Assembly (NCBI GenBank): GCA_014905635.1
Contig: JABVCE010000009.1
Location: 682,001-746,000, forward strand
Length of the DNA: 64,000 nt
Source: Scenedesmus sp. PABB004
Taxonomy: Eukaryota
Direction: 5' to 3'
Each line of letters starts with the position of its first letter. Within the stretch, counting starts at the first letter, position 1. Position numbers and translations under genes: made by a program. Positions 3,392 through 64,000 of this stretch are shown piece by piece. The notes beneath the pieces are model-generated. The model was not told the origin of the DNA and did no database searches. It saw nothing but the letters and a program-made list of their open reading frames with translations.

Positions 3392-3709
3392 GAGGGAGGG
3401 AGGGCGACAGGCCGGGCCAGCGGCTGGCGCGGCGCGAGAGGGCGCGGCCGCGCGGGCGGGCGACACAGGGCGGGGCGCCGGCGGGGGCGCGCGGCCGCCG
3501 CCGCGCCTGCGGCGGCCCCCGCCCTGCACGCCCCCCGATCGGGGCGGCGCGCGCAGCGATGCGCGCCAGGGCCGCGGCGGGCGCGCGCACGCGATGCATC
3601 GCACAGCATTGCTTCTGTTTTCTCGGTTGACCGGACACCTGCGGCGCCGTGTGCTGGGTGCGGCGCTCGGCATGTGTTACCGCTCGGGCGGTGGTGGCCA
3701 CGTGCACGT

Positions 3710-3714
3710 TTACA
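3710..3714 (-). promoter_or_regulatory. TGTAA polyadenylation signal of the TXNDC17-like gene
   Basis: TGTAA on the minus strand ~200 nt after the stop; canonical chlorophyte poly(A) signal. Confidence 0.5.
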
Positions 3715-3917
3715 CACCCAGCGCACCGCGCACCAGGCCGGCCGTCCCCCGGCTGGCGCCCGACCGCCCGCCCCTCAGGCCCTGCTGCGGTCAGCAGCGG
3801 CCAGCGGCGGCCTCCCAGCTCGCCCGTCCGTTCGCCGCTGCGGCACGCCGGGCGCGTCCTGCAAGCCCAGGGGCAACCTCCAGGCTCAGGAGCAGCCCGG
3901 CAGGCTCAGCAGAGGGC

Positions 3918-31500: not shown

Positions 31501-31565
31501 GCGCCAGTGGGCACGTCGCGGAAGGCGCCCGCCGCGACGTGCCGGCTCTCCACGAGGCGCTCCAT
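25537..31565 (-). CDS. NUP160: Nucleoporin Nup160/Nup120
   Basis: C-terminal blocks LWTAVFNYAVELDLIADAYTAALANP...LRRLAQALLERG...LPWAG, VLYDFLVSRG..HASAAMLSLARRL, LELPPWLL..F, DPAGLLRVLVKHGRLVDAA, WLPLGQLELL resemble plant NUP160; beta-rich N-terminus; large multi-exon gene. Confidence 0.8.
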
Positions 31566-32104
31566 GATTCACCGGGAGCGCCTAGCGCGCGGCCATGAGG
31601 TGATCGGCCCGGCCGGCGCCGCGCGCGAGCCGATCGTCTGGCGTCGGCCCCCGACGCAGCCGTGCGCGTTGGGCAACGGACGGCTGAGTGTGTGGCGCTG
31701 TGAGGATGGTGCCTCCTCCGGCGCGGCGCAGCCTGCGCCTGCCGTGCTCTGCTGCCGCTGCGGCGCAGCGGCTGTGTGTCGCGCGCGGCTTGAACCTTCG
31801 TCGTCGGCGAATCGCCGCCGCAGCGCGGCAGAGCGCCGTCCCACCTGCACTCCACACCGTCGCTCGCCCTGAACCAGCTCCAGCAGCAACAGCAGCCGCG
31901 GCAGCAGCCGCCGCAGGAGCAGCAGCAGCCGCGGCCGCCGCCGTCGGCCGGCCGGGACCGCGTCCATCAGCGCGCCCCCGCACCTGCGCCACCTGACGCG
32001 CGCCGACCGCGGCGCTCGCGCGACCTCCTCAGCGCCCGACGCGCCGAGAGGGCGGCCCATCGGGCTCGAGCGGGGGCTGCCCTGCCCCGGCGAGCCCCGG
32101 CGCG

Positions 32105-40750: not shown

Positions 40751-41568
40751 GCACAGAAGCACCTGTCCGGGCGGTTCAAGTTTGGCTTCCGCCCGCCGCG
40801 CACGGGGCGGCGCACCGACGTGATCGGCGAGCGCCGCTCGGGCCTGCTCGACGCCGCCGTGGCGCTGCTCGACCCGACCGTCACGACGCGCACGCTCATC
40901 AACGAGGGCGCCGTGTTCGGCGCGTTTGCGCTCTGGTGCGCCCCGCCGCGCGCCGCCCGCGCTCGCCCGCGCGCCGCCCGCGCGCCCGACGCGGCCCCTT
41001 TGCTCGCCCGTGCCACTCCCCCTCACACACACACACACCACGCTCACCGCCACGCCCGCCCGCGCGTGCGCGCAGGGTGCTGTTTTCGAGCGACCAGTCG
41101 TTCCCGCTCGCCGGCGCGTTTGCATACAGCGTGTACCAGTTCCAGTCCAAGCGCGTGCGCCGCGACCCCGAGGGCCCCTTCCTCGGCGGCAACGCGATCG
41201 TCGGCGCGATCCTCTCCACGCTCGCCTGCCTCGCCGTGGCGTGCGCGGTGCGCCGCCGCGCCCGCCGCCGCGCGCCCTCGCGCCGCCGCGCGCCCTCGCG
41301 CCGCCGCGCGCCCTCGCGCCGCCGCGCGCCCTCGCGCCGCCGCGCGCCCTCGCGCCGCCGCGCGCCCTCGCGCCGCCGCGCGCCCTCGCGCCGCCGCGAG
41401 CCCTCTCACGTGCCGCCGCTGCATCCGCCGCCGCCGCCGCGCGCGCGCCGACAGGTCATGGCGGTGCTGACCGGGCCGCTGACGGCGGTGCTGGGCCAGT
41501 CGTCGCGGCAGGTGGGCGGCTTCATCACCATCGCCGTCATGGGCGCGGTCGGCATCTACCTCAAGTAA
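39782..41568 (+). CDS. CPP1-like J-like plastid protein (DUF3353)
   Basis: NPYR|LLGVSREASFEEIQDARNYLYE|QYKWHEPSREAIELAFDSLLQ, then three hydrophobic segments ending ...GIYLK*. Confidence 0.85.
41263..41405. repeat. Intronic 18-bp minisatellite (CGCCGCCGCGCGCCCTCG) x ~8
   Basis: Directly visible in the last CPP1-like intron. Confidence 0.95.
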
Positions 41569-46685: not shown

Positions 46686-47115
46686 GCTGGCCGGCTCTGC
46701 TGCTCAGCGCGTCGCGGGCGGCGCGGCGTCGCAAACGCGGGCATGCGGCGGGCGCTGGCGGCTCGGCGCGCGCGCTGGCCGAGGGCGTTAGGTGGCACAT
46801 AACTGCTGGTGCGGGCACAATGCCCCGGCCGGCGCATCGCGGCAGTTTTGAAACACACACGCTCTCGCGCGTGTCACGGACGCGCGCCCTGCCGCGATCA
46901 GGCGCGCGCGGGCCAGCCGCACGGCGGCGCGCGGCCGCCGCTGCTGCGGGCCGGTGAGTGGCGCGGGCCGCCCCGCGCCCAGCGCGCGCGGCGCGGCGCC
47001 GCGCCGCCGCCGGGGCTGCGGCGGCGTGCATGGCGGCCTGGCGGCAGCGGGCGCCGGCGGCGGCGGGCAGCAGCGCGCTGCGGCCGCAGCGGCAGCGAGC
47101 TGCGGCGCCGGCGCG
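46631..47115 (+). repeat. ~485-bp direct repeat copy 1 (BTA1 first codons + divergent promoter + flavodoxin 5' end)
   Basis: Near-identical to 48316-48801. Confidence 0.95.
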
Positions 47116-48309
47116 TCGCGGCCGCGCGTTGCCGCCGCGCCGCCGCCGCTGCCGCGCGCCGCCGCGCGCCGCGCTGGGCGTCGTCTACACCAGCGCCGGC
47201 GGCGCGACGCGGCGCGCGGCGGAGCTGATCGCGGCCCGGCTCGGCGCCGCGGCGGCGGGGCCGCCGATTGACCTCGCGGCGCTGCCCGGCGGGCTCGCCG
47301 ACCTGGCCGGCCTGGACGGTCTGATCGTCGGCGCGCCGACGTACAACACCGGCGCGGCCCGCCAGCGCAGCGGCACCGCCTGGGACGACGCGCTCTGCTG
47401 CGAGCGCGGGCTCGCGGCGCTGCGGGTGCGCTGCACGCGCGCGGCCTGGCACGCCCGCCGGCGAGCGCCCACCGCCGCGACCGCGCCGCGCCACAGGGCA
47501 AGCCCTTTGCAGTGTTTGGATTGGGCGACGCGGCGCGGTTCAAGCACAGCTTTGCGGACGCCATCGGCGAGCTGCACGACGTGCTCGCTGCCGCGGGCGC
47601 AGTGCCGCTCACTGCCAGCTACGCCTGCCCCTCCGACTACCTGCATGCCGCGTCCAAGGCGCTCCGCGCGCCCGGCGGCGGCGGCGCGCCGGGCGCCGTC
47701 GTGCAGTCGGCGGCGCGCGGCGGGCGGTTTGTCGGGCTGCCGCTCGACTCTGCGAGCCAGCCGGAGCTCACGCCGTCGCGCGTGCGGGCCTGGTGCGCCG
47801 GGCTGCTCGAGCAGCTGGCGCGCGAGCACCCGCGCGCGCTCGCGCCGGCGGCCGCGCGGTCTCCTTGGCCGGCGCCGGCCGCGGCGGCGGCGGCGCAGCC
47901 GCTCGCCATCGGCGACTGGCCGGCTGCCTGGCCGGCGAGCGGCGCGTTTGGTGGCCTGCGCCTCTGGGGCTTTGCGTTCACCGACCGCTACTACCAGTTT
48001 GGTGACCGCTGGGCGCGCTTTGCCGACGACGGCTTCCTGCTGCGGGCGGGGTTCAGGGAGCACCCCGTGTGGGCGCACGCCTACGCCGACGTCGCGGGCG
48101 TGCAGGTCGGGCCGCCGCGGCCGTGCGGCGCCGGGGAGTGCGCCGACGTGCGCGTGTCGCTGCGCGGCCGCCCCGGCGCCGCGGTCGTGCTGCGGGAGGT
48201 GGAGGTGTCGCGCGGCGGCGGCTGCGTCGTCGCAGACTTCCTGCGCGCGCAGGCCGCGGCGCACGCCGGCGGCGCCGCCGCGGCGCGCGCGCTGGCCGAC
48301 GGCGGGTAG
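47030..48309 (+). CDS. Plastid-type long-chain flavodoxin fused to an uncharacterised C-terminal domain
   Basis: Transit-like peptide, GVVYTSAGGATRRAAELI, DGLIVGAPTYNTGAARQRSGTAWDD, one intron (47426-47496), GKPFAVFGLGD...FADAIGELHD, FVGLPLD...RVRAW; ~150 extra residues after the domain. Confidence 0.8.
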
Positions 48310-48315
48310 CGCGCT

Positions 48316-48801
48316 GCAGGTGCGCGGGCACGGCGCCCACGCCCGCCGTGAGCTCGCCGCCCTTGCCCATGCTGGCCGGCTCTGCTGCTCAGGCGTCGCG
48401 GGCGGCGCGGCGTCGCAAACGCGGGCATGCGGCGGGCGCTGGCGGCTCGGCGTGCGCGCTGGCCGAGGGCGTTAGGTGGCACATAACTGCTGGTGCGGGC
48501 ACAATGCCCCGGCCGGCGCATCGCGGCAGTTTGAAACACACACGCTCTCGCGCGTGTCACGGACGCGCGCCCTGCCGCGATCAGGCGCGCGCGGGCCAGC
48601 CGCACGGCGGCGCGCGGCCGCCGCTGCTGCGGGCTGGTGAGTGGCGCGGGCCGCCCCGCGCCCAGCGCGCGCGGCGCGGCGCCGCGCCGCCGCCGGGGCT
48701 GCGGCGGCGTGCATGGCGGTCTGGCGGCAGCGGGCGCCGGCGGCGGCGGGCAGCAGCGCGCTGCGGCCGCAGCGGCAGCGAGCTGCGGCGGCGCCGGCGC
48801 G
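48316..48801 (+). repeat. ~485-bp direct repeat copy 2 (orphan BTA1 and flavodoxin start codons)
   Basis: Encodes MGKGGELTAGVGAVPAHL (-) and MAVWRQRAPAAAGSS (+) without the gene bodies. Confidence 0.95.
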
Positions 48802-48986
48802 GCGCCCCCTGTCGCTGATGTGCGCGCACGCTCGGCGGGGTGGGCCAGGCCGTCGAGCCGGTGACGCCATTACCCCCGCCCGCAACGCCTGCTGCCGCGC
48901 CGCTCGCCGCGGCCCGCCGCGCGTGCTGCGAGCCCCGGGCCCCGGGCCCTGGGCCCTGCGGGCCACCCCGGCGCTCCAGAATGAGG

Positions 48987-51900
48987 TCAGAAGCGCGCGA
49001 GCTGCCGCGTGTCGCCAGCCGCGCGCACGCCGTAGGGGTTTGCCGCGCTGAACGCGTGCCCGCTCCCGCGCGCCGCCTTGGGCTTGGCTCGCCGGTAGTC
49101 CGCGGCGCCGGCGCCGCCCTTGGCCGCGCGCCGGCCGTGCGCGGCCTTGGACTCGATGTTGAGGCTCACGCGCGGCGGGCCGGAGAAGCCAAACGACTTG
49201 GCCACCGCCTGCGCGGCCGCAGCGCGGAGCAGGGGGAGCGCGGGCGGTCGAGCCGGGTCGCGCGCGCGGGCGAGCGCCTCCCCCGCCCCGCGCGCGCGCG
49301 CCCCGCTGCCGCCGCGCCGCGCAGCGCGTTGCGCCGTGCTGCCGCGCTGCCGCGTGCGCGCGCGCGCGCCTGGAGGTCGAGGGTGTGCACGTTGAAGATG
49401 TCCTTGAGGGCGTGGCTGTTGTAGGAGAGGATGTAGGACCTGGGGGAGGGTTTAGTGCATGGTGTGGTGGTGGGTTCAGGGTTCAGGGTTCACGCGGGTC
49501 AGGGTTCAGGGGCGAGGGAGCGAGAGAGGGAGGAGAGAGAGGGCGAGAGGGAGAGGGAACGAGAGAGAGGGAGAGGGAGGTAGGGAGGGAGGGAGTAAGA
49601 TTGAAAGAGAGAGGGAGGGAGGGAGGACGAGAGAGGCAGTGCGCGCCCCGCGGGGCGCCGCGGGCGCTGCTGGCTGGGCCGCGCCTGTACGCGTCGCGCG
49701 CGCTCTGGTGCAGGTAGTAGTTCTTGGCCACGAGCCGCTCCAGCTGGCCCTGCACGCCCGCGAGCTTGTTCAGCGGGAACTCGTACTCGTTCAGCGGCAC
49801 CTGCGGCGTGGCGCGATGCGGCCCGGGGGCGGAGGGAGGCGAGGGAGGGGGGCGGAGGGAGGGGGGAGGGAGGGCGCGGGGCGGGCGGCGTGAGGGGCGG
49901 GCAAGAGGCGGGCGCGGCGCGGCGGGGCGGCGGAGGGGGCCGCTGCGCGGCGCGACTGGATGGAGCAGCGCGTGGTGCCCTAAACCGCCGCGCCGCGCCT
50001 TGGCTGCCTTGAGGTATTTGAGGAAGCCCAGCTCCTCCGGCATCAGCATCAGCAGCGCGCGCCCCCGCCCGTCGCGCCCGCGCGCGGTGCGCCCGACCTG
50101 CGGCGGCGGGTGCGGGCCGTGCGGGCGGCCCGTCGGCGGGCGGGCGCGGCGGCGCCGGGGCCCCGCGCGGTGCTCCCCAGTCCCGCGCGCCCGCAGCTCC
50201 AGTCCACACGCGCAAGAGCTTCCTCGCATGGCCAGAAACAACGAGACAAACAATAACAACAAATTGTAACACAATGAATATAACAAAACAACAACCTAAC
50301 ACCACGCACGCGGTGGATGTACTCCTTGGGGTCGTCGGGCGGGTCGTACTGTATGATCCAGTCGACCGCGGGGATGTCCAGCCCGCGCGCGGCGACGTCG
50401 GTGCACAGCAGGATGCCCTTGTCCGCCTGCGTGCGCGTGTGTGTGTGTGTGGGGGGGGGGGGTGGACAGGGCGCGAGGGGGCAGGCAGGTGTGCCCGGCG
50501 GCGAGCGTCCGGCGCCGGCCCCGCGCCACCCCAGCTCCAGCGGCTCCACCCCAGCTCCCAGACCCCCCTCCCCCCCTCCCCCCCTCCCCCCTGCCGCCGG
50601 CCCCTCCTCCTGCGCGGCCGCCGCGCCTGGCAGAACTCAAAGAACGTCGCCGTGCGCTTGGCCTGCTTCTGCTTGCCGTGGATGTCGCGGACGGGAATGT
50701 CGATGTAGTTGAACAGCTCGCTGCGCGGGGGGTTGAAGGGTTTAGGGGGGGCAGAGGGGGGGGGGGCAGGGTTTTGGGTGTGTGAGGGATTCAAGGGGGG
50801 AGGGCGGGGGAGGAGCGGGGGGAGGGCGAGTGCGAGGGGCGCGCCGGCGGCGCGGAACGAAACGCTGTGTAAGCACACCATCCCGCGCACACCATGACCG
50901 GCGCGACGACCGCGCGCGCCAGCGCCGCCGGTCGTGCGAGCTGCGACGCGCGGCCGCGGCCGCCCCCCCCCCCCCCCCCCCCCCCCCACACACACACACC
51001 CACACCTCCCCACACACTCGCACACTCTGTGCACCCTAAGCCCTAAGCCCAAAAACCTACACCCGCCCACACACACGCACCCACCTGTGGTACTTGACCG
51101 CGTTGCAGCTGCTGAAGAAGACCATGACCTTCTTGGCCAGGTTCTTCTTGAGGAACGTGAACAGCAGCAGCAGCCGCTTGTCGGCCGGGACCACCACGTA
51201 GCCCTGCGCGGCGGGCGCCGCGGACGACGACGCGGCGGGGCGGTCGCACACGCGGCGCGGCGACGCGGCGAGCGCCGGCGCGCCGGCGTCGGCGGGGCGC
51301 GCTCGCGGGACGCGTGCGCCAGCGCGCCCCGAGGCGCCGCGCAGCGTCAGCACCCCCCTCCTCCCCCCTCGCCCTCTCCCCGCGCGCCGCGCCTGCTCCA
51401 GGCCCTCCCGCGTCGCGGTCGTGCGGCTGTCGTCGACGCCGACGTAGAGGGGGCGGTTCTTGAAGCTCAGCCGCGCGAGGTCCTCGACCTGGGGTTTAGT
51501 GGCAGGGGTTGACGGCAGGGGGGTTAAGTGGGGTCGGTCGCGGGCCAGGGTTTAGCGGGGTCGAGCCGTCGCGGGGTTGAGGAGCGGCGGCGGGGCTGGC
51601 GGCGGCCGCGGCGGCGCCGGGGGCTGGCGGCGGGGCTCGCGGCGCGGCGCGGTGCGGCGTGCGGCGCGCGTGCCGGCCCACCTTCGTCGTCTGCGTCGCG
51701 CTGAAGAGCATCGTCTGCCGCTCCTTGGGCAGCACCTGGGGGTGGCGAGGCCGGCGGGCGCGCGCGCGTGGGCGGTGGCAAACAACAGCCACACACACCA
51801 CAGGCCCAACACCACACACAAGGCACACACAAGACACACAAGACGCACACCAGCCCCAACACACACAACACACTCACAAGCAGGCCCAACAACACACACA

Positions 51901-54570
51901 AGACACGCGCAGCCAGAGCAACAGCGCGCCGCCCACCTTGACGATCTGGCGCATCTCCTCCTCAAAGCCAATCTCCAGGATGCGGTCCGCCTCGTCGATG
52001 ACCAGCACGGCCAGGGAGCGGAACACAAAGCCCCTGGTGTTCTGCAGGTGGTCCAGCAGCCGGCCAGGCGTCGCGACCTGCGCGCGCCGCGCGGGAGCGG
52101 GAGGGGGGGGGTCAGGGAGGGAGGACGGGGGACGGGGGAGGCGGGCGGGGAGGATGGCGGCTCGGGCGGAGAGGGCGCGGGGGCGGGGCCGAGGGGCCGC
52201 GCGCGCGCGCGGCGGAGGCGCGGCGGGCCGCGCAGAGGGGGCCACGCGGCGCGCCGCGCGCGGCCGGCCAGCCGGGCGGCCGGCCGCGCGCGCCCCGGTC
52301 GCCGCGCGCCGCCGCGCCGCGCGCGCTGTGCCCCGCGCGCCGCGCCGCGCGCCGCGCGCGCCGCACGCCGCACCAGGAGGCTGACGCCCTTGACCAGCTT
52401 CTCCGCCTCTGCGCGGCGGTTGGCGCCGCCCATGACAAGGCCATGCGTCTGGCTGTGGCCCTTCATGAGGTCACGCGCGACGCCGTAGATCTGGCGCGGA
52501 GACACGAGGGTTTAGGGTGGTGGAGGGTTTAGAGTGGTGGAGAGTTTAGAGCGTGTGCGCGGTTGGGCGGTGGGCGCGTCAGTGAGGAGTGTGCTGCGCG
52601 AGTGAGAAAGGGGAGGGAGGGCGCGAGGGGCGGGCGCGCGCGGAGGGCGCGGCGCGGCGCGGCGCGCGCGGGCGGCCGCCGCCCTCGCCTGCAGCGCGAG
52701 CTCCCGCGTCGGCGCGATGACGATCGCGCCGGTGCCGTTGCGGGGCATGAACTTGGCTCTGCGGGGGGGGGGGGGGGGGGGGGGCGGAGCACGGGACAGG
52801 GCACGGTGGGACGGAGGACAGGGGACGTCAGGCGGGGCGGGGCGGGGCGGGACGGGACGTCAGGCGCAGCGCGGGCGCCGCGTGAGGGCTGCGCCAGCGC
52901 GCAGCGCGTGGCCGCCGCGCCTGTGCAGCAGCTCGACCGCTGGTATGAGGAAGGCCAGCGTCTTGCCGCTGCCCGTGCGCGCCGCGCCGAGCACGTCCCG
53001 CCCCGTGAGCAGCGCGGGATGGTGCGCGCCTGCAGGCGGCGGCCGCCGCGGCGGCGGCGGCGGCGGCGCGCGGTCGCGCGGTCGCGCGGCGGCCCGGCCG
53101 CGCCCCCTGCTGCTGCACTCTTGACCTCGCGGCGGCGGCGCGGCGAGGCAAGCGCGCGCTCCGCCAGGGGCGCCGCGCGGCGCGGCCCCGCCTCCCTAAA
53201 CCCCTAAACCCCTAAACCCCGCACCTGCACCTCCGTCATCGTGGTGTAGCCCATGTCAGCAACGCCCGCCGCGGTCGCCGCGCTCAGCTGCAGTGAGTCG
53301 AAGCGCGTGTCGCTCATGATGCCAGACACCTGCGCACCCCAGCCAGCGGCCGGGGCACGGCGCGCGCGTCGCCGTGCGTGGCCCGGCGCCGCGTCGCGCG
53401 CGCTGCGTGTGCGCGGCGGCAGTGCGCCAGCCAGCGCCCCCCCCCCCCCCCCCCACACACACACACCCACCACCACCACCACACCGCACCTGCGCGGTGT
53501 GCTTCTCCACCTCCAGCGCCGCGCCTTGGCCTTTTTCTTCTTGCCGCCCGCCGCGGCCTCCGCCGCCGCCGCCGCGGCGCCGCCGCCGCCGCGCCGCCGG
53601 GTCGGGCTTGAGCTTCTGCGGGCGGGCGGGCGCGCGGCGTGGGCGCGGGCGCGGGCGCGCTCGTCACGGCGGCGCTCTGCGAGCACGGCACCTGCCCGCC
53701 GGGTGCCCGCCCGCCCGCCCGCGCCGCACACCTTGGCCTTCTGCTGCTGCTGCTGCTCCTCCTCCTCCTCCTCCTCTGGGCCGTCCTCGTCCGACTCCGC
53801 CTCCCCCTCGTCGTCCTCGTCGTCAAAGCCCTCCCCGCCGCTGCTCATGCCGTCCCCCTCTCCGCCCTCGTCGTCGCTGTCGCTCTGCGTCGCGGCGGCG
53901 GCAGCGGCGGCGCCGTCAGCGCCCGCCGCTCCCCGCCCCGCCCCGCCCCGCCCCGCCGCTGCCGCCTGCCGCCGCAGCGCTCTGCAGCGCCGCTGTCTGT
54001 CTTGTCTGCCCACCTGGATGTCGTCCTCTGCAAAGTCGTCCGCCGCCGCCAGCCGGCCGCCGCCGAGGTCCACCAGGCGCTGCCCCGCCGCGCCGGCGTC
54101 GTCCGAGTCGCTGCCGCCGTCGAGCTGCGAGCTGCCGGGGTCGCTGCCGCCGTCGTCGCTGCCGTCGCTGGCCGCCGGCGGGAGCGGCTGCCGCGCGGCC
54201 TTGCGCCGCGCCTGCGCGGCCTGCAGCTGCGCCTGCAGCTGCGCCTGCGCCGCCTGCGGGGGCACGGGCGGTCAAGCACGGCGGGGCGTGGGCGGCTGCG
54301 TGTGCGCGCCCGCCGACAGCGGCGCCGGCCGCCGCTGCCGGCGCGGCCCCCGCGGCGCGCCATGGCGGCGCGCCAGCGGCGCGTCCGGGCGCAGCGCGCG
54401 TTCAATTGCCGCGGGGCGCCCCCGCGGCGCCGCCGGCAGACCGGGCGGCGCGGGCGCACCTGCTTCGGCGCGGCGGCCGGCGACGCGGCGGCCGCCGGGG
54501 ACTGCCCAGGCTTGCCCGGCTTGCTGCGCTTGCGCTTACGCTTGCCGCCCGCGCCCGCGGGCTCGCCCAT
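48987..54570 (-). CDS. HAS1: DEAD-box RNA helicase HAS1/DDX18 (RH27/51-like); apparent 1-nt frameshift at ~53016-53018
   Basis: [131 protein letters not shown]; acidic N-terminus. Confidence 0.95.
53194..53220. repeat. Telomere-like (CCCTAAAC)3 immediately inside a HAS1 5' splice site
   Basis: CCCTAAACCCCTAAACCCCTAAACCCC. Confidence 0.85.
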
Positions 54571-58096: not shown

Positions 58097-59158
58097 CGCG
58101 CGAGAGAGAGAGCGCGGGGAGCGCCTGCGGGCGCGCGTGACCGCAACCCAGCTGTGTTACTCTCCAGCGACAACTCCGGCTGCGGCCGCCTCTGCGCGCG
58201 CCGCCGTCAGCAGCGGCGCCTCCTCCAGCGCCGCCCGCCCCCGCCGCGCGTGCGCGGCGGGGGCAAGAGATGCGGGCCCAGCGATGCGGGCGGCGCGCGC
58301 GCGCGCGCGTGCCGCGGCCGCCAGGCGGCGGCAGCGCGGCTGTGCGGCGGCGCGCCGCCCTTTCTTGCCGCCGATCGCCGCTCATCATCACGCGCGCAGC
58401 ACACCAGCACAACAGCAGCAGGCAGGGACAGCGCTCTCGCACCCGCGCGTGCGGCGGCCTCCTCGACCGCGCGTCGCGCGGCACCCTCGGCGCGCTGGCG
58501 GCGCGGCGGCTGGGCGCGGCCCGCCCGCGCCCGGGCGGGCGCTGCAGCCGCCGCGGCGGCGCCCCGCGCCGCGTGCGCCACGGCACAGGCCGCGGCGCGC
58601 ACAGGCGCGCGGCGCCGCTGCGACCCATCCTGGCCAACCTCAATGCGCCCGCCCGCCCTCTCCTCTTCCCTAAGCAGACCCCGGGCGCCGGCGGCAGTGC
58701 CAGACGCGCAGCAGGTGCGCGCGGGAGACACGGAGCACACGATCTCGTGCGCCGCCCACCGAGCCGGCAGGCGGGAGCGGGCTCCCGTTGCGGGAGCCCA
58801 TTTGCCCGCGGGAGCCCCGCGGGGAAAAAAGAAGCGTATAGTACACGTTCGGCGCACAAGCGCAGGGCGGCGCCGAGCGAGCGGCCGCGGCGATGCCGCC
58901 GCGGCGACGACCGAGCCGCCTCCACCCGCCCGCCCGCCCGTCCCCGCCCGCCTGTCCCCGCCCGCCTCCCCCAATCGACCACGCCGCCACCTCAACGCCA
59001 CGACGACGACGAAACAAACACAACAAAAAACGCGCGCCGGCCGCGGCGCCCCCCGACCCCACCCCATTTACCCCCACCGCCTCGCCCACCCTTGCGCGCC
59101 GTGCGCCGCCGCGCTGCCGCCCCGGACGGCCAGCGGGCGCGGGCGCGCCGCCGCCGCC

Positions 59159-59224
59159 TCAGTCGTCGCGCTGTGCGTAGACCGTGATCGGCACGAGCGC
59201 CCGCTCCGGCGGCACCAGCCAGTA

Positions 59225-59268
<44 letters not shown>

Positions 59269-61506
59269 AGGCCGCGGGCGAGCCGCCGTCGGCGCGCTGG
59301 TCCCAGCGCTGCGCGCGGCGGCGCCGGCCGACGCGCAGGTCGTCGCCGCTGCCCTCGACCGTCGCCGCGGCCTGGCTGAGCGCGGAGCGGAAGAAAGTGG
59401 CGAAGAATCCCAGGTGGTCCTGCAGCAGCGCCTCGCTCGCTTGGCTGCGCGTGCGCGCGGGCGCGGGCGCGGCCGCGCGTGGGCGGGCGCGCGTGGGCGG
59501 GCGCCTGGCACGCGCGGCGCGCGGCGCGCCGCGAGCGGCACGGCGCGCGGGCGCAGCCGCACCGCCGCGCCTCCTCCTGCGCGGGGCTGTACGCGCGCTT
59601 TGCGCGCCGCTGCGCCTCCTCGCGCCGCGCGCGCTCCTTCAGGAAGGTGGACGTCGCGTCAAACACGTCCGCCACGCGCCCCTGGCCCGCCATCATCACG
59701 CCCACGTTCACGCGCTCCTGCGCGCCGCGGCGCGGCGGCGGCGGCGGCGCGGCGCGCGTCGGCGCGGGCGCGCGGCCGCGCCGCCGGCGCGCCGGGCTCC
59801 GCGCGGCGTCTGCTGCGGGCGGCGGCGGCGCGCGGGGCGCACCGTGAGGCGCGTCTGCATGACATACTCGAGCGCGGGCAGGTCGGCCTTCTTGACCCTG
59901 CGGCGGGGCACACGGGCGGCGGCGGGCGCGCGGGCGGGTTCGGCGGCGGGGCACGGCCGCGCGGCGCGCGGCAACGGCTCGCGGGGAGGCGGCGGCGGCG
60001 CACCAGTGGATGCAGCTCACGGGGCAGCTGTCTGCGCGCGGCGGGGCGCGGGCGGCGGGGCGCGGGCGGCGGGGCGCGGGCGGCGGGGCGGGCGCGGGTG
60101 GGCGGGCGCGGGTGGGCGGGCGGGCGGCGGGCGCGCGCGGGGCGCGCAGCCGTCAGTGCTGTCGGGCCGCCGCCGCGCGGTGCGCCGCCGCGCGCCGCGC
60201 CGCACCGATCGCAGCCTGCTGCTCCGCCTCGCTGTTGAGCCACTGCGCAAACACGCGGCTGCGGCCGTGCTCGTGCTCAATGCGGAACACGCCGGGCGCG
60301 TGCCACACGCACTGCTTGCAGCCGATGCAGGTGATCTCATCCTTTGTACGGCGGGCGGGCAGGCGGGCGGCGAGGGCGCGGCGGGGGCGCGGCGTGAGCG
60401 GCGGCGCGTGAGCGGCGGCGCGGCGGCGCGGCGGCCCAGCGGCGGCGCGGGGTCGCACCACAAACACGGCGCGGTCCTCGGCGGGGTCGGCGTGCTTGGC
60501 CATGGCCGGGTTGACCGCCGGCATCCACTTGCTGAGCGGCTCGCCGGTGAAGTCGTCCTCCGCATCAGCGAGCGCCGTCTCGAGCCGCGCGTTGTACGCG
60601 GCGCGCGCGCCCTCGTCGCTCAGCACCTGCACGCGGCGGTCGCGGCGCGGCGCGGCGGCGGGGGGTCGGCTGGGCGGCGGGGGTCGGGGCCGCGCGCAGG
60701 TGCTGAGCGACGAGGGCGGCGGCCCCCACCGCCGCTGACGCCGCGCGCGCGCGCGGGGCGGCCGTCCTGCAAGCCGTCCTGCAAGCCGTCCTGCAAGCCG
60801 TCCTGCAAGCGCGCCGCTGCCGCGGCCCGCGCGCACCTCGTACGCCTCGTTGAGCAGGATGCAGATGTTGTGCCCCGCGTCGCCCAGGTAGTCGGGGTGG
60901 CACCTGCGCGGCGCGGCGGCGGCGGCGCGTGAGCCGCGCGGGCGTGGGGAGCGGGCGCGGGGAGCGGCGGGCGCGGGCGCGGGCGCGGCGGCGGCTGCAG
61001 CGCACTCTTTGGCGAGCGCGCGGTACGCGCGCTTGATCTCGTCCACGCCCGCGTCGTCGTCGACCTGCGCGCGGCCGCGGCGTTTGGCGCACGCCCGCAT
61101 CGTGCGCCGCCGCAGCTGCGTTTGGCTTCGGCGCCGCGCGCGGCGGCCGGCTCACCCCCAGGACCTCGTAGTAGTCGACCGTGCCGTCGTGCAGCATCAT
61201 GGGGTTGGCCGCGGACGACGACGACGACGACGACGAGCGCAGAGGCGGCGGCGCCGCGGCGCGCCGGGCTGCGCGGCGAGCGCGGGCGGGCGCGTGTCCG
61301 CGCGCGCGCGGCGCACGCGCGCCCGGCGCCGCATGCTGCTGCGCCGGCGCCGGCGGCGGCTGCGCGTGGCAGCGCCGGCGTGGGGCCGGGAACGGGCGCG
61401 GGCGGCGGCGATCGCGCCGCGGCGGCGACGCACCGCTGCTCAGCGCCGGCGTGCCGCGCCGCTGCTGCTGCGGCGCCCGCGCGCGAGCGCCGCGCCAGAG
61501 GTGCAT
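59159..61506 (-). CDS. Chloroplast J-domain protein with ferredoxin domain (CDJ3/CDJ4, DJC76-like)
   Basis: DYYEVLG|VDDDA...IKRAYRALAKE|CHPD, LNEAYE|VLSD; AVFV|DEITCIGCKQC...GRSRVFAQW...AI|DSCPVSCIHW; start codon uncertain. Confidence 0.9.
60761..60810. repeat. Intronic 12-bp tandem repeat (GCCGTCCTGCAA)4
   Basis: Directly visible. Confidence 0.9.
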
Positions 61507-61749
61507 TACACTGGTCGTGCGCGGGTCGCGAGGGGCGCGCGGGGGCCGGCGGGCTCGCTGCGCCGGGCGGGCGGTGGCGCCGCGCTGCTGCCGCGGGTGC
61601 GCGGGGAGCCGCGGCGACGGCACCGGGCGGCGGGGAGGGCGTCGGGGAGGTCTGCGCAGCGCCGTGGGGCGGAGATCCGGTCGCTGAGCGGAGGGTTAGG
61701 CGCGAAAAGCCCGCACGGCTCTCCCTGCCGCTGTTCGTTGCCGCCGGCA

Positions 61750-61848
61750 CCGTGTCCCGCCGAGGCCGCGCGCGCGATCATGCGCGTGCGCGCCCGCCGC
61801 CGCCGCACGCCCCGCGCGCGCAGTCTCGAGTCGCGCGCGCCGCCGCGC
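61750..61848. repeat. Bipartite motif copy 1 (CCGTGTCCCGCCGAGGCCGCGCGCG..ATCATGCGCG / CAGTCTCGAGTCGCGCGCGC)
   Basis: Both blocks recur in the same order at 62204-62318 with a diverged spacer. Confidence 0.85.
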
Positions 61849-61863
61849 GCGCCGCGTCGCAGA

Positions 61864-61925
61864 GCGGGCAGGTCTTGAGCTTGTACACGACAAGCTTGTC
61901 GTGTACAAGCTGAAGACCTGCTCGC
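61864..61925. ncRNA. Hairpin 1, pre-miRNA-like (62 nt)
   Basis: 31-nt arms with 2 mismatches; central 34-nt perfect palindrome at 61878-61911. Hairpin is certain, RNA function is inferred. Confidence 0.5.
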
Positions 61926-61970
61926 CGGCGCGCGGAGCGCGGGCACGCCGTTGGGCAGCGCCAGCACGCG

Positions 61971-62036
61971 CTGCAGCTCCGTCCGGACCTCGTCCACGGG
62001 CATATCTGCCGTGAACGAGTTCCGGACGAGCCGCGG
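61971..62036. ncRNA. Hairpin 2, pre-miRNA-like (~66 nt)
   Basis: CGTCCGGACCTCGTCCACGGGCA pairs with TGCCGTGAACGAGTTCCGGACG (2 mismatches, 1 bulge), loop TATC. Confidence 0.5.
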
Positions 62037-62043
62037 CCAGTGC

Positions 62044-62125
62044 TGCTGCTATACATGCGCGGGGAAAAGGTTGAGAAGCTCACAGTGAGCTTCTCCAACT
62101 CTTTTCCGGCACATGTATAGCAGCA
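62044..62125. ncRNA. Hairpin 3, pre-miRNA-like (82 nt)
   Basis: TGCTGCTATACATG/CATGTATAGCAGCA, GGAAAAG/CTTTTCC and GAGAAGCTCAC/GTGAGCTTCTC stems with small bulges. Confidence 0.55.
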
Positions 62126-62203
62126 AACAATGTGGCGGGGCAGGTTTAAACACGCGAGCGGCGCCAAACTCGTGCCGCCGCCGGCTCTTGCGTCTGCGCG
62201 TTG

Positions 62204-62318
62204 CCGTGTCCCGCCGAGGCCGCGCGCGATCATGCGCGCGCCCGCCGACTGTGCACCGCCGCCGCCGACGTCCGAAGCGCGCGCCCCGGCAGTCTCGAGT
62301 CGCGCGCGCACGCCGCGC
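62204..62318. repeat. Bipartite motif copy 2
   Basis: Matches the blocks at 61750-61848. Confidence 0.85.
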
Positions 62319-62741
62319 CTACGTGCGCGCGGCGAGATCAGCGCCCGCCGCGCCGCCGCCGCTGCAGATCAGTACAGTGGGAGCCGAGGTCTGCGGCCGC
62401 CAACCTTGAACAGCACAAGCACAAGCACACGAGCGCTGCGCGCGCGGCATGCGTCACGCCCTGGCCACGCACGACACCAACGCCCCGCGTGCCCCCTGCC
62501 ACACCCCGGGACAGACGGCTGGCTACCTCTGCGCTGCGCCTGGCGCCACCCGCTGCGTCGCCACCCCTGCTGCTGCCGCGCTGCCAGCCCGTCGCCGGGC
62601 GCGCCGCAGCGGCGGCCTACCGCTACCGTACCGCCTGCCAGATCAGGGTTCCGGGCGCGCGCCGGCGCCATGTGCAGAGAGAGGGAAAGAGGAGTGCGTG
62701 GTGGGGCGGCGCGCCCGCGCCCGCGCCCGCGCCTACTGCTA

Positions 62742-64000
62742 CTACGCGCGGCGCAGCAGCTTGGTGATGCACATCACGGCCGCCTCGGTGTGCGCGGCGA
62801 CGCGGGGCAGCGAAAACATGCCCGCGTCGAGGCCGAGCACGCTGATGTGCAGCGCCGCGGCGCGCGCGTGCTCGCTGCCGAGCACGTCGGGGCTCTCGAG
62901 GAACTGCTGCACGCGCATGACGGTCTGGTGCATGCCGTCGGTCATGCGCAGCAGCTCCTGCATGCTCTCCATCAGCGCGCGCTCGCTCTTGGCGAGCGCG
63001 AGCGCGCGCTCCGCGGCGCCGCCGGCGGCGCGGGGCGCCGCCGCGCCGCCGCCGCCGCCGCCGGCGCCGGCGCCGCCGCCCGCGGGCTCCGCCGGCGGCA
63101 GCGTCACGCGCTCCTGGTTGGAGGTGTTGCTGTCGTCGGGGCTGCTCTTGTTGAACGCCTGCTGCCCGCCCGCCGCTGACCAGGCGCCGGGGCTGGGCGG
63201 CTTGCCCGCCGCCGCCGCGGCCGCCGCCGCCGTGGCCGCGGCCGCCGTGGCCGCCGCCGCCGTGGCCGCCGCCGCCGCCGCGCGCTGCGCCTGCAGGCGC
63301 GCCTGCGCCTGCGCGGCGCCGGCAGCGGCGCCGCCGCCCGCCTTGAGCGCGCGCACGTGCGCCTCGAGCTGCTTGCGCTGGTTGTGCAGGTTGCGCATGT
63401 TGGCGATCGCGCCGAGGCGCTCCAGCAGCATGCGCAGCGCCTGCTTGGCGACGTCGGGGCCGCGGCAGTTGCTGCAGCTCGCCATCGCCATCGCCGAGAG
63501 CGCGCCCGTCTGGCGCAGGAACTGCGCGCCGCTCAGCCCCGCGACGTGCGCGGCGAGGCGGTCGACCGGCGCGCCCGCGCCGCGCAGGCGCGCGAGCAGG
63601 CGCAGCGCCGCGTCCCACGCGAGCAGGAACTCGGCCGTGCTCAGCGCGTAGTGGCTGAGCCCAAACACGTCCCACGCGCCCAGGCTGTTGTGCCGGCGGT
63701 CGCCCTGGTGCTTCAGCTGCTTCGCGCGGTCCATGAGGCTGCCCAGGTACGCCAGCGCCTCCTCCTGGCTGCGCACGGGCCGGTCGTCCGGCGGCAGCGC
63801 GCGCTGCCGCACCGGCGGCACCGCCGACAGCACCGCGAGCGCGCGCGCGACGGGCGTCATCGCGCCGGGCGCGAGCTCCAGCAGCCGACCGCCGGCCGCC
63901 GCGCCGCCGCCGCCGCCGCCGCCGAGCGGCGCCGGCGCGGGCGGCGCGGGCGGCGCGGGCGGCGGCGCGGGCATGCTGACGGCGTCGAGCCCGCGCGCCG
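62742..64000 (-). CDS. 3' terminal exon of a large protein with an AF4/FMR2 C-terminal homology (CWZF tri-helical)-like domain; 5' part outside window
   Basis: Open frame of >410 aa with protein-like composition; LMDRAKQLKHQGDR...HYALSTAEFL resembles the EAK.LKH.AD...Y..A...F pattern. Confidence 0.6.
   Translation of the reverse strand, partial: ARGLDAVSMPAPPPAPPAPPAPAPLGGGGGGGAAAGGRLLELAPGAMTPVARALAVLSAVPPVRQRALPPDDRPVRSQEEALAYLGSLMDRAKQLKHQGDRRHNSLGAWDVFGLSHYALSTAEFLLAWDAALRLLARLRGAGAPVDRLAAHVAGLSGAQFLRQTGALSAMAMASCSNCRGPDVAKQALRMLLERLGAIANMRNLHNQRKQLEAHVRALKAGGGAAAGAAQAQARLQAQRAAAAAATAAAATAAAATAAAAAAAAGKPPSPGAWSAAGGQQAFNKSSPDDSNTSNQERVTLPPAEPAGGGAGAGGGGGGAAAPRAAGGAAERALALAKSERALMESMQELLRMTDGMHQTVMRVQQFLESPDVLGSEHARAAALHISVLGLDAGMFSLPRVAAHTEAAVMCITKLLRRA

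Follow-up and report, generated by a model that had tools for sequence, protein, structure and literature searches.

Three near-perfect hairpins in a short spacer of the Scenedesmus sp. PABB004 genome: a candidate repair relic in a putatively captured gene fragment

Overview

Three near-perfect fold-backs lie within 260 bp of the spacer between two minus-strand genes of the green alga Scenedesmus sp. PABB004. The window analysed is a 64,000-nt stretch of contig JABVCE010000009.1 (64 kb below), and all positions refer to it. We read the block as a relic of template-switch or snap-back repair inside an inserted, truncated gene fragment, and not as ordinary spacer, with a probability of about 55%. 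At least the first two hairpins (H1 and H2) are local inverted duplications within that truncated gene fragment, since coding-type fragments in the block join in frame across one arm of H1. The hairpins are enclosed by a direct repeat, the DNA between the repeat copies has coding-type periodicity and a frame relation that one arm interrupts, and the arms and the repeat have diverged equally. Capture from elsewhere, a repair mechanism acting in a single event, and neutrality since then would account for this arrangement. Inverted copies of this kind can provide material for new small-RNA genes.

Genomic setting

The upstream neighbour (62742-63974, minus strand) is a conserved chlorophycean gene of unknown function, with its true stop codon at 62742-62744. 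It has 12 homologues, the best of them 59-67% identical across most of the length, and matched no Pfam family. The protein encoded in the window shares its C-terminal column with all eight aligned homologues, seven of which end in KLLR plus two residues; the tail of P0028 is longer and different. TGTAA was rejected as the poly(A) signal of this gene: the 64 kb contain just six copies, of which that at 61506 coincides in part with the putative start codon of the downstream gene. A search of metagenome contigs with the alignment of the upstream gene returned 100 pattern matches, none of which was confirmed as a related locus.

The downstream neighbour (59162-61506, minus strand) is an intron-containing gene with DnaJ and 4Fe-4S ferredoxin domains, as revealed by Pfam matches to Fer4_13 (4.3e-11) and DnaJ and by exons matched with tblastn. 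Its start is probably the ATG at 61506, and the best of its 20 homologues is 56% identical. For both neighbours, the best homologues are sphaeroplealean or chlorophycean (Tetradesmus, Raphidocelis, Monoraphidium, Gonium; 56-67% identity), and in one EukProt genome they carry the consecutive gene numbers 4234 and 4235. A search for sequencing runs matching positions 60000-64000 returned no RNA run and just two DNA runs, both from one freshwater-metagenome study, each with 0.09-0.10 of the words.

From the stop codon of the upstream gene to the hairpin block the distance is 617-880 nt, and from the block to the probable DnaJ ATG, which lies further downstream, it is 358-619 nt. The first-pass annotation had called this DNA intergenic, which is correct only insofar as a minus-strand gene is found on either side of the block, since coding-type sequence is present inside it.

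Hairpin geometry and folding

H1 (61864-61925) is a 62-nt palindrome without a spacer, whose arms are complementary at 29 of 31 positions. H2 (61971-62036) measures 66 nt and H3 (62044-62125) 82 nt; none of the three was assigned to a strand. They were found where the first-pass annotation had placed them, and its description of 28-38-bp stems with tiny loops and few mismatches agrees well with the 27-37 pairs and apical loops of 3-4 nt measured here. Pair counts gave 27-28 pairs for H1 (2-4 unpaired stem positions), 27 for H2 (4-8) and 36-37 for H3 (5-7). The two arms are 0 nt apart in H1, about 9 nt in H2 and 1 nt in H3.

Predicted RNA folding energies on the plus and minus strands were -53.2 and -46.7 kcal/mol for H1 (z -11.9 and -11.8), -42.0 and -48.9 kcal/mol for H2 (z -6.9 and -8.3), and -54.6 and -56.3 kcal/mol for H3 (z -10.8 and -12.1). 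In the comparison with dinucleotide-shuffled controls that had been proposed at first pass, none of the 200 shuffles was as stable as the real sequence for any of the three hairpins. The whole 291-nt block had a fold z of -15.6, and DNA folding parameters gave the same picture. The strand favoured by stability is inconsistent, being plus for H1 and minus for H2 and H3.

The hairpins had also been described as mutually unrelated. They are indeed not copies of each other, the sole common piece being 12 nt at 83%, but H1 and H2 each duplicate, in inverted form, successive parts of a single coding-type fragment, and as unrelated non-coding hairpins they were misdescribed.

The GC content is 0.56 for H1, 0.68 for H2 and 0.50 for H3, compared with 0.79 for the 64-kb window. 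In a GC-corrected scan of the whole plus strand in 80-nt windows, the residual z was most extreme for H1 (-5.1) and H3 (-4.4), and H2 ranked fifth. The first-pass annotation had pointed to the higher AT content of H1 and H3 than of their surroundings. Low GC alone is not special, with about 23 lower-GC islands in the window. A stem-extension scan recovered H1 and H2 together with ten further palindromes, all of them simple sequence of 91-100% GC; H3 fell under its score threshold because of its bulges. The window holds further structural duplications, one of them inverted and 99% identical.

A low-GC insert between direct repeats

The block is flanked by two copies of a direct repeat, likewise without an assigned strand. 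The left copy (DR-L) spans 61711-61848, with weak similarity perhaps reaching 61863, and the right copy (DR-R) spans 62178-62316, with weak similarity perhaps reaching 62337. Local alignment of DR-L with 62178-62337 gave 127 matches, 8 mismatches and 43 gap columns, with a score of 139, whereas 200 shuffles reached 46 at most. The robust part (61711-61848 against 62178-62316) has 113 matches, 7 mismatches and 10 indel events. Two diagnostic 18-mers of the repeat match exactly at just these two sites within the window. A larger tandem unit of 460 bp was rejected, the similarity being limited to the ~140-bp repeat.

Between the copies lies an insert of ~329 bp (61849-62177) with 63% GC, against 80-83% in the repeat. 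Its last 52 nt, between H3 and DR-R (62126-62177, minus strand), are unique, with an AT-rich box, GTTTAAAC, and have no second copy within the 64-kb window.

Some transposons capture gene fragments, and a short, structured insert with GC below its surroundings and flanking direct repeats resembles MITEs and fold-back transposons. The block might be the remnant of such a fold-back element or MITE, or of a gene-fragment-carrying transposon with the hairpins as its structured ends, but we consider this very unlikely. The MITE alternative raised at first pass found no support: the inverted repeats are internal and self-contained, and element-wide terminal inverted repeats are missing. Moreover, the flanking repeat, at ~140-150 bp, is far longer than the usual target-site duplication of 2-10 bp, and a second copy of any arm is absent from the 64 kb. 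Exact cores of H1, H2 and H3 had no matches in viral contigs, and neither had that of H1 in metagenome contigs or that of H3 in prokaryote genome contigs.

An LTR element or TRIM was rejected as well. By eye, the repeat has no TG..CA ends (it begins CCGC and ends CAGA), no purine tract lies beside either copy, and the adjoining 5-mers, AAAGC on one side and TCAGC on the other, do not form a duplication. On the minus strand, TGGCGCC at 9 nt from DR-R is a candidate primer-binding site.

Coding-type fragments inside the insert

Two stretches of the minus strand show the codon-position GC pattern of this genome's exons. Fragment A (61926-62003) comprises 26 codons from an ATG, MPVDEVRTELQRVLALPNGVPALRAP. 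Its GC content at codon positions 1, 2 and 3 is 0.88, 0.46 and 1.00, compared with 0.80, 0.60 and 0.99 in the known exons of the upstream gene. The fragment overlaps H2, the 3' arm of which corresponds to codons 2-10; on the minus strand, the ATG sits at the edge between apical loop and stem of H2, and H3 lies upstream of it in a leader-like position.

The minus-strand stretch 61917-62003 was flagged by an 87-nt period-3 criterion, which picked out 1040 windows at 93 loci in the real sequence and none in 12 locally shuffled copies. Judged by eye from their translations, almost all of the 93 loci are exon-like. All 29 third positions in 61917-62003 are G or C, with P = 1.4e-4 given the composition. 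An origin from organelle DNA was rejected in view of the GC3 of 1.0, which is of the nuclear type.

Fragment B (61847-61894, minus strand) comprises 16 codons, LVVYKLKTCPLCDAAR; it is cut at the edge of DR-L and includes the 3' arm of H1. Its GC content by codon position is 0.62, 0.44 and 0.94, and it was flagged by a 48-nt period-3 scan. The frame of fragment B is open for 38 codons before a stop.

Between the two fragments lies the 5' arm of H1 as read on the minus strand (61895-61925). These 31 nt interrupt the frame with a +1 shift and, read in the frame of fragment A, have a GC content of 0.40, 0.90 and 0.30, which is not coding-like. Fragment A ends at the codon boundary at 61926 and fragment B begins at 61894, so that both form one frame once the arm is skipped. 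The 31-nt arm is therefore probably the secondary, inverted copy. This restored frame is the sole trace of the ancestral state, and an indirect one.

Database searches yielded no homologue of fragment A or of the longer minus-frame ORF. Fragment A matched no Pfam family. The 44-aa peptide of its frame gave 29 word candidates, none at E <= 10, and the ESM Atlas returned no usable match for fragment A; both are weak tests. The 177-aa minus-frame ORF at 61781-62311 had no match among 1.84 billion protein representatives, and the long ORFs had none in Pfam.

A live small gene, with a real protein starting at the ATG at 62003 and an mRNA under the control of the hairpins, seems barely credible to us; H2 would hide its start codon, and the break in frame at H1 would have to be overcome somehow. 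The exon-grade period-3 signal does begin exactly at this ATG, and the in-frame relation of the fragments is what such a gene would need if the 31 nt were skipped. However, the frame beyond fragment A is not coding-like as the DNA stands, the 38 codons of frame B fall far below the length of a glutaredoxin domain, the searches with the 177-aa ORF and the 44-aa peptide found no homologues, and the homologues of the two neighbours are numbered consecutively in the EukProt genome. Two ways of passing the arm were examined and rejected. An intron would have just one GT..AG pair to use, 23 nt from end to end, and its removal would lead into the wrong frame; for ribosomal bypass the take-off codon CCG has no matching landing codon.

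Resemblance of fragment B to glutaredoxins

A glutaredoxin signal in fragment B had been expected ahead of the searches. With a 26-residue query, neither Pfam family reached its curated cut-off: Glutaredoxin (PF00462) gave 14.8 bits against 22.9 (E 0.034), covering positions 2-20 of its 60-position profile, and Glrx-like (PF05768) gave 13.3 bits against 26 (E 0.11), covering positions 1-19 of 77. The best PDB match was the glutaredoxin-like N-domain of prostaglandin E synthase 2, at E 1.1. In the ESM Atlas, 27 of the 30 named matches were glutaredoxin clusters, the best with a score of 0.91 and 174 shared features. By these comparisons, fragment B weakly but consistently resembles the beta1 strand and CPxC start of the glutaredoxin fold, a likeness that falls short of domain membership.

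The signal comes from ~19 residues. Part of it, LCDAAR (61847-61863), overlaps the weak repeat alignment; the true edge of the insert may thus be 15 nt to the right, and chance may account for part of the glutaredoxin motif.

Divergence of arms and repeat

The arms differ from each other at 8 of 98 positions, and the copies of the flanking repeat at 8 of 135 (Fisher p 0.60). G·U pairs number four on the plus strand and three on the minus strand, favouring neither. With the arms as diverged as the repeat and no G·U bias, the hairpins lean away from stems kept by selection. The stems show no sign of selection, and counts of 8 against 8 differences leave weak selection possible. Young small-RNA genes would also be expected to drift, according to a discussion in PMC5511227.

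Small-RNA and cis-acting RNA readings

The stems invite a second reading, as an active small-RNA locus of miRNA-like or hairpin-siRNA type, in which each stem would be diced into one or two 20-22-nt duplexes. We regard this as a tentative alternative, clearly short of an even chance. A minus-strand transcript might come from the upstream gene by read-through, from the duplicated repeat copy, or as an extended leader of the DnaJ-ferredoxin gene; minus-strand genes on both sides and the short spacer make read-through plausible. The stems, with 27-37 pairs, few mismatches and small loops, are predicted to be very stable on both strands. Their shape also agrees with the single fold-back of at most 300 nt, with room for a 21-nt duplex with at most five mismatched positions, that Axtell and Meyers reportedly set out in 2018 for plant and algal miRNA annotation.

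The derivation of H1 and H2 from one coding-type fragment would supply such a locus with a natural target. Because the stems would be inverted copies of the leader, start and active-site regions of a parent gene, antisense products would be aimed at the glutaredoxin-type parent mRNA, along the inverted-duplication route to new miRNA genes. Algal miRNAs are described as young and non-conserved, and are thought to come from inverted duplications or from hairpins made by mutation (PMC5511227). In Chlamydomonas, DCL3 is reported to cut UTR and intron hairpins of mRNAs (Valli et al. 2016, PMC4817775), and counts given there are 13 mRNAs with UTR miRNAs, 26 with siRNA precursors and 9 with hairpins without small RNAs.

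Several results weigh against a small-RNA locus. The pairing is not visibly protected, the arms having diverged like the flanking repeat and G·U pairs having no strand bias. No Rfam 15 family reached its gathering threshold; the sole match was to mir-9416, whose gathering score is 100; it reached 32.8 bits, followed the palindrome and was equal on both strands. Plant and algal miRNA precursors are usually longer than 62-82 nt, which puts these hairpins on the short side. A sphaeroplealean genome paper gives 0 miRNAs, as a count from annotation only (PMC7354681), and our literature search for studies of small RNAs in Sphaeropleales found none. In its more specific form, a newborn three-hairpin small-RNA locus made from a captured glutaredoxin-type 5' fragment by three local inverted duplications that left Dicer-sized stems, and thus a natural "multi-hairpin silencer" of one gene, the idea is speculative, and we hold it to be rather improbable.

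The hairpins might instead act in cis, as part of either neighbour's mRNA (the upstream gene's 3' UTR or an extended 5' leader of the DnaJ-ferredoxin transcript), lowering expression by Dicer-like cleavage or by blocking scanning ribosomes, or serving as a read-through barrier between the tandem genes. The position of the block is suitable, on the same strand as both genes, 617-880 nt past the stop of one and 358-619 nt before the ATG of the other, and the minus-strand stems reach -47 to -56 kcal/mol each. DCL3 is also reported to destabilise mRNAs with UTR hairpins in Chlamydomonas (PMC4817775). However, the G+T-rich stretch of 3'-UTR type appears to stop near 62340-62400, short of the block, and the block resembles inserted foreign coding-type DNA and not an evolved UTR element. 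We judge a cis-acting structure to be unlikely.

Proposed origin of the block

The repair relic that we favour would have arisen as follows. A ~230-bp piece of another nuclear gene would have entered the spacer between the two minus-strand genes in minus orientation. It would have comprised leader sequence, the start codon ATG and some 42 codons, the last of them forming the beta1-CPxC start of a glutaredoxin fold. Its insertion would have duplicated ~140 bp of the target, producing the two flanking direct repeats. Three stretches within the fragment (about 31, 28 and 40 nt) would then have been copied back-to-front beside their sources. The palindromes, with 0-9 nt between their arms, could be products of template switching or of fold-back ("snap-back") priming while DNA was being replicated or a break repaired, and the 31-nt inverted copy in H1 would have broken the reading frame. 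Afterwards, arms and flanking repeat would have drifted at an equal rate, and with equal drift nothing points to selection on the stems. If the block is transcribed, most plausibly from the minus strand like its neighbours, the RNA would contain three stable, Dicer-cuttable hairpins as an accidental by-product.

An inverted copy directly beside its source is the mark of template switching, and it is what the arms show, lying 0, about 9 and 1 nt apart. In a single step, template switching is reported to generate perfect inverted repeats of 28 to 83 nt (PMC10710096), and snap-back synthesis is described for end joining by SD-MMEJ (PMC5728401). Three separate inverted copies within 260 bp are many for neutral mutation unless they arose in one event, as assumed here. 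Neither a parent gene of the insert nor parents or targets of the hairpin arms were found within the 64-kb window.

Comparison with known systems and significance

In plants, new hairpin RNA genes are classically explained by inverted duplication of their target genes; Allen et al. are said to have proposed in 2004 that MIR loci originate when a fragment of the target gene is duplicated in inverted orientation, an idea also found in PMC5511227. The block shares with young MIR or hairpin-siRNA loci stems that are inverted gene copies, a lineage-specific occurrence, near-perfect pairing and no conserved family. Those loci usually have one long inverted duplication, whereas here three mini-palindromes of 62-82 nt cover consecutive parts of one fragment. 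Like the DCL3-cleaved hairpins of Chlamydomonas reported in PMC4817775, the block is chlorophycean and lies beside or within same-strand protein-coding transcription units; that class is defined by DCL-dependent small RNAs or host-mRNA cleavage, and the present hairpins are at most candidates for it.

The closest correspondence is with duplications by template switching or snap-back synthesis, as far as these are treated in Mönttinen, Frilander and Löytynoja 2023 (PMC10710096) and in PMC5728401. In both, the arms adjoin their reverse-complement source. The copied lengths, about 28-41 nt here, lie within the 28 to 83 bases reported (PMC10710096). A near-perfect stem has been eroded by point changes, and one copy interrupts an older sequence, in the present case a reading frame. 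The Scenedesmus block departs from the described cases in having three copies within 260 bp, inside a gene-fragment insert with a ~140-bp flanking duplication, and its mechanism is deduced from the end product.

It is still an open question how new hairpin RNA genes arise, and template switching is reported to make miRNA-sized stems in mammals (PMC10710096). In the present block the stems can still be recognised as parts of a gene fragment, and the flanking duplication provides an internal clock. If the block makes no small RNAs, it would present a complex repair scar in clean natural form, composed of a target duplication, captured filler and three snap-back copies. As a relic, it would also be a warning that perfect hairpins in a spacer are not necessarily RNA genes. 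If small RNAs are made, the block would show, with unusual legibility, a small-RNA locus together with its target at the time of birth. Should the three-hairpin small-RNA reading prove true, template switching would be a source of miRNA-like clusters outside animals. The locus appears to combine template switching and the inverted duplication of a target gene in a green alga.

Three hairpins in a gene spacer

Between two minus-strand genes, the spacer held three near-perfect fold-backs: H1 (61864-61925, 62 nt), H2 (61971-62036, 66 nt) and H3 (62044-62125, 82 nt), exactly where the first-pass annotation had placed them. Their folding energies on the plus and minus strands were −53.2 and −46.7 kcal/mol for H1 (z −11.9 and −11.8), −42.0 and −48.9 kcal/mol for H2 (z −6.9 and −8.3), and −54.6 and −56.3 kcal/mol for H3 (z −10.8 and −12.1). 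The whole 291-nt block with all three hairpins had a z of −15.6, and DNA folding parameters gave the same hairpin result as RNA parameters. Stems comprised 27–28 (H1), 27 (H2) and 36–37 (H3) pairs, with apical loops of 3–4 nt.

The three fold-backs are far beyond chance. As claimed earlier, this is not chance pairing: for each hairpin, 0 of 200 dinucleotide shuffles matched the native fold energy, and in a GC-corrected scan (80-nt folding energy regressed on GC, entire plus strand of the window) H1 and H3 were the top two outliers and H2 ranked fifth. A stem-extension scan of the window returned H1, H2 and ten further palindromes, those ten all being simple sequence of 91–100% GC; H3 stayed under its score because of bulges. 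The G+C content was 56% in H1, 68% in H2 and 50% in H3, versus 79% for the window, which agrees with the AT-richness reported for H1 and H3, with the caveat that lower-GC islands are common in the window (~23 places). The hairpins were also described as mutually unrelated, and one 12-nt stretch at 83% was all the sequence that they had in common.

The GC-corrected scan also returned a hairpin of 30 pairs and 69% GC at 3649-3728, two adjoining hairpins at 31505-31584, and, at 58777-58856, two short GC-rich stem-loops with CGGGAGCCC in common, followed by an A-run. The last lie ~300 nt downstream of the DnaJ-ferredoxin gene. TGTAA is the usual chlorophycean poly(A) signal. It occurred only 6 times on both strands of the 64 kb; this alga may mark 3′ ends otherwise, or most 3′ ends in the window may be without TGTAA.

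Neighboring genes

The upstream gene (62742-63974, minus strand) is a conserved chlorophycean gene of unknown function. The C-terminal column of its protein was the end of 8/8 aligned homologues, 7/8 with KLLR plus two residues, so the stop codon at 62742 is real. The downstream gene (59162-61506, minus strand) contains introns and encodes DnaJ and 4Fe-4S ferredoxin domains. Its putative start, at 61506, is the sole in-frame ATG before the J domain, excepting two Met codons immediately preceding the domain. The closest relatives of both neighbors were from sphaeroplealean and other chlorophycean algae (56–67% identity). In one EukProt genome their homologues had consecutive gene numbers, 4234 and 4235, which suggests that the adjacency (59162-63974) is ancestral and conserved. 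The hairpins lie 617–880 nt beyond the upstream stop codon and 358–619 nt ahead of the DnaJ ATG; that they form a cis-acting UTR or leader structure at this position is unlikely.

A repeat-bracketed insert with coding-type sequence

The block was bracketed by an imperfect direct repeat, 61711-61863 aligning locally with 62178-62337 (127 matches, 8 mismatches, 43 gap columns; score 139, with 46 the highest among 200 shuffles). The robust part spans 61711-61848 and 62178-62316; over its final 15 nt the alignment is weak and the sequence very GC-rich. Two diagnostic 18-mers of the repeat occurred exactly at those two places only within the 64 kb, and similarity did not extend beyond the copies into a larger tandem unit. 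The layout is repeat (80–83% GC), insert of ~329 bp (61849-62177, 63% GC), repeat. A mobile-element remnant is a very improbable reading of the block, as it lacks the hallmarks of such elements and has no further copies within the 64-kb window.

An unexpected result is the coding-type sequence in the insert. A sharp codon-position bias characterizes the known exons of this genome: GC1/2/3 was 0.80/0.60/0.99 for the upstream gene and 0.76/0.49/0.96 for one DnaJ exon. A strict period-3 criterion (87-nt windows, GC3 ≥ 0.97, GC2 ≤ 0.55, GC1 ≥ 0.6) flagged 1040 windows at 93 loci; nearly all of these look exon-like, judged from a reading of their translations. None was flagged when the window was locally shuffled (12 copies), so the false-positive rate is essentially nil, despite the window length having been picked after the segment had been seen. 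One locus was 61917-62003 on the minus strand, starting at an ATG at the apex of H2; the probability that 29/29 of its third positions are G or C, given composition, was 1.4e-4. It includes fragment A (61926-62003, minus strand, MPVDEVRTELQRVLALPNGVPALRAP; GC1/2/3 0.88/0.46/1.00). Within the spacer, a looser 48-nt scan, with ~3% chance hits, additionally flagged 61844-61894 (minus strand), corresponding to fragment B (61847-61894, minus strand, LVVYKLKTCPLCDAAR; GC1/2/3 0.62/0.44/0.94). That the insert is a live small gene is scarcely credible.

For fragment B, a glutaredoxin-fold start (a hydrophobic strand, then CPxC) was expected ahead of testing. With a 26-residue query against 24,736 Pfam families, the best match was Glutaredoxin (E 0.034, profile positions 2-20 of 60), followed by Glrx-like (E 0.11, positions 1-19 of 77); a match of just 19 residues necessarily falls under the curated cut-offs, as both did. 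The top PDB match was the glutaredoxin-like N-domain of prostaglandin E synthase 2 (E 1.1, LTLYQYKTCPFCSKVRA), and glutaredoxin clusters made up 27/30 named ESM Atlas hits (best score 0.91, 174 shared features). These may be taken as weak leads, consistent with one another, toward a glutaredoxin fold, not as membership. The residues LCDAAR of fragment B fall in the ambiguous zone of the repeat alignment, and if the repeat runs to 61863, part of the glutaredoxin-like motif is a junction accident. Homologue, Pfam and ESM Atlas searches detected no relatives of fragment A, and the 64-kb window held no parent gene for the fragments.

Origin of the hairpin arms

The last codon of fragment A is complete at 61926, precisely at the start of H1, and fragment B starts at 61894, precisely midway through the H1 palindrome. 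Read on the minus strand, the intervening 31 nt correspond to the 5′ arm of H1 and cause a one-nucleotide frame shift. Continued in the frame of A, this arm is not coding-like (GC1/2/3 0.40/0.90/0.30); once it is skipped, A and B share one frame. Most simply, A and B would formerly have been one continuous reading frame, and the arm a later inverted copy of the opening 31 nt of B. On the minus strand, the 3′ arm of H2 comprises codons 2-10 of fragment A, and its 5′ arm lies immediately upstream of the ATG. H3 is entirely within the leader, and either of its arms may be the older.

Arms differed at 2/31 positions in H1, 4/28 in H2 and 2/39 in H3 (8/98 in sum, plus 4 gap columns), and the repeat copies at 8/135 (robust part 7/120; Fisher p 0.60 and 0.59, respectively). 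These few events match one origin with subsequent drift, weak selection being compatible too. On the plus strand, H1, H2 and H3 had 1, 1 and 2 G·U pairs, and on the minus strand 0, 2 and 1, indicating no filtering of transitions for RNA pairing on either strand.

Other repeats were present in the window. Complementarity between the arms of a large inverted segmental duplication (18739-20468 and 22817-24600, ~2.3 kb apart) was 99% over stretches of 472 nt and 924 nt and 79% over a further 113 nt. Both carry the same exon-like reading frames (e.g., GVGYIAYALMFNGPELL..., PHAHPGVLNLIVKHFIDTC...) and are thus one gene twice, in opposite orientation. A direct duplication of ~425 nt (46709-47132 and 48393-48815) had 95–99% identity at a spacing of 1683-1684 nt. 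A tandem array at 41245-41405 had an 18-nt period (unit CGCCGCCGCGCGCCCTCG, several perfect copies), and spacers repeatedly contained long poly-C runs with CA-rich tracts after them (50949-51025, 53426-53484).

A relic or a small-RNA locus

Three inverted duplications, each local, within a captured and truncated piece of a gene probably account better for the anatomy. The best-supported account is a complex event of repair or replication: the spacer would have captured a fragment of ~230 bp from the 5′ part of a nuclear gene, with ~140 bp of target duplicated at capture, and the palindromes would stem from three short fold-back copies, by template switching or snap-back. Template switching is described as generating, in a single step, perfect inverted repeats 28 to 83 bases long, and is also proposed as an origin of new miRNA stems (PMC10710096); snap-back synthesis is described in alternative end joining (PMC5728401). 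We favor, at somewhat better than even odds (about 0.55), a relic without selected function.

The first-pass annotation had proposed a polycistronic miRNA or small-RNA cluster, and this interpretation of the hairpins is neither supported nor refuted. An inverted-duplication model for the origin of miRNA genes has reportedly been put forward by Allen et al. An active small-RNA locus here, possible but doubtful, would share the origin of the relic and add predicted transcription and dicing, with the parent gene as a natural target. A full-text literature search found no small-RNA studies in Sphaeropleales; the Mychonastes genome report, which puts the genomic GC at 72.4% and ranks it highest in the order at that time, lists 'miRNA number 0' by annotation (PMC7354681). 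A precedent is described in Chlamydomonas, where UTR and intron hairpins are cut by DCL3 (PMC4817775), and algal miRNAs are described as young and lacking conservation, such accidents being their proposed source (PMC5511227).
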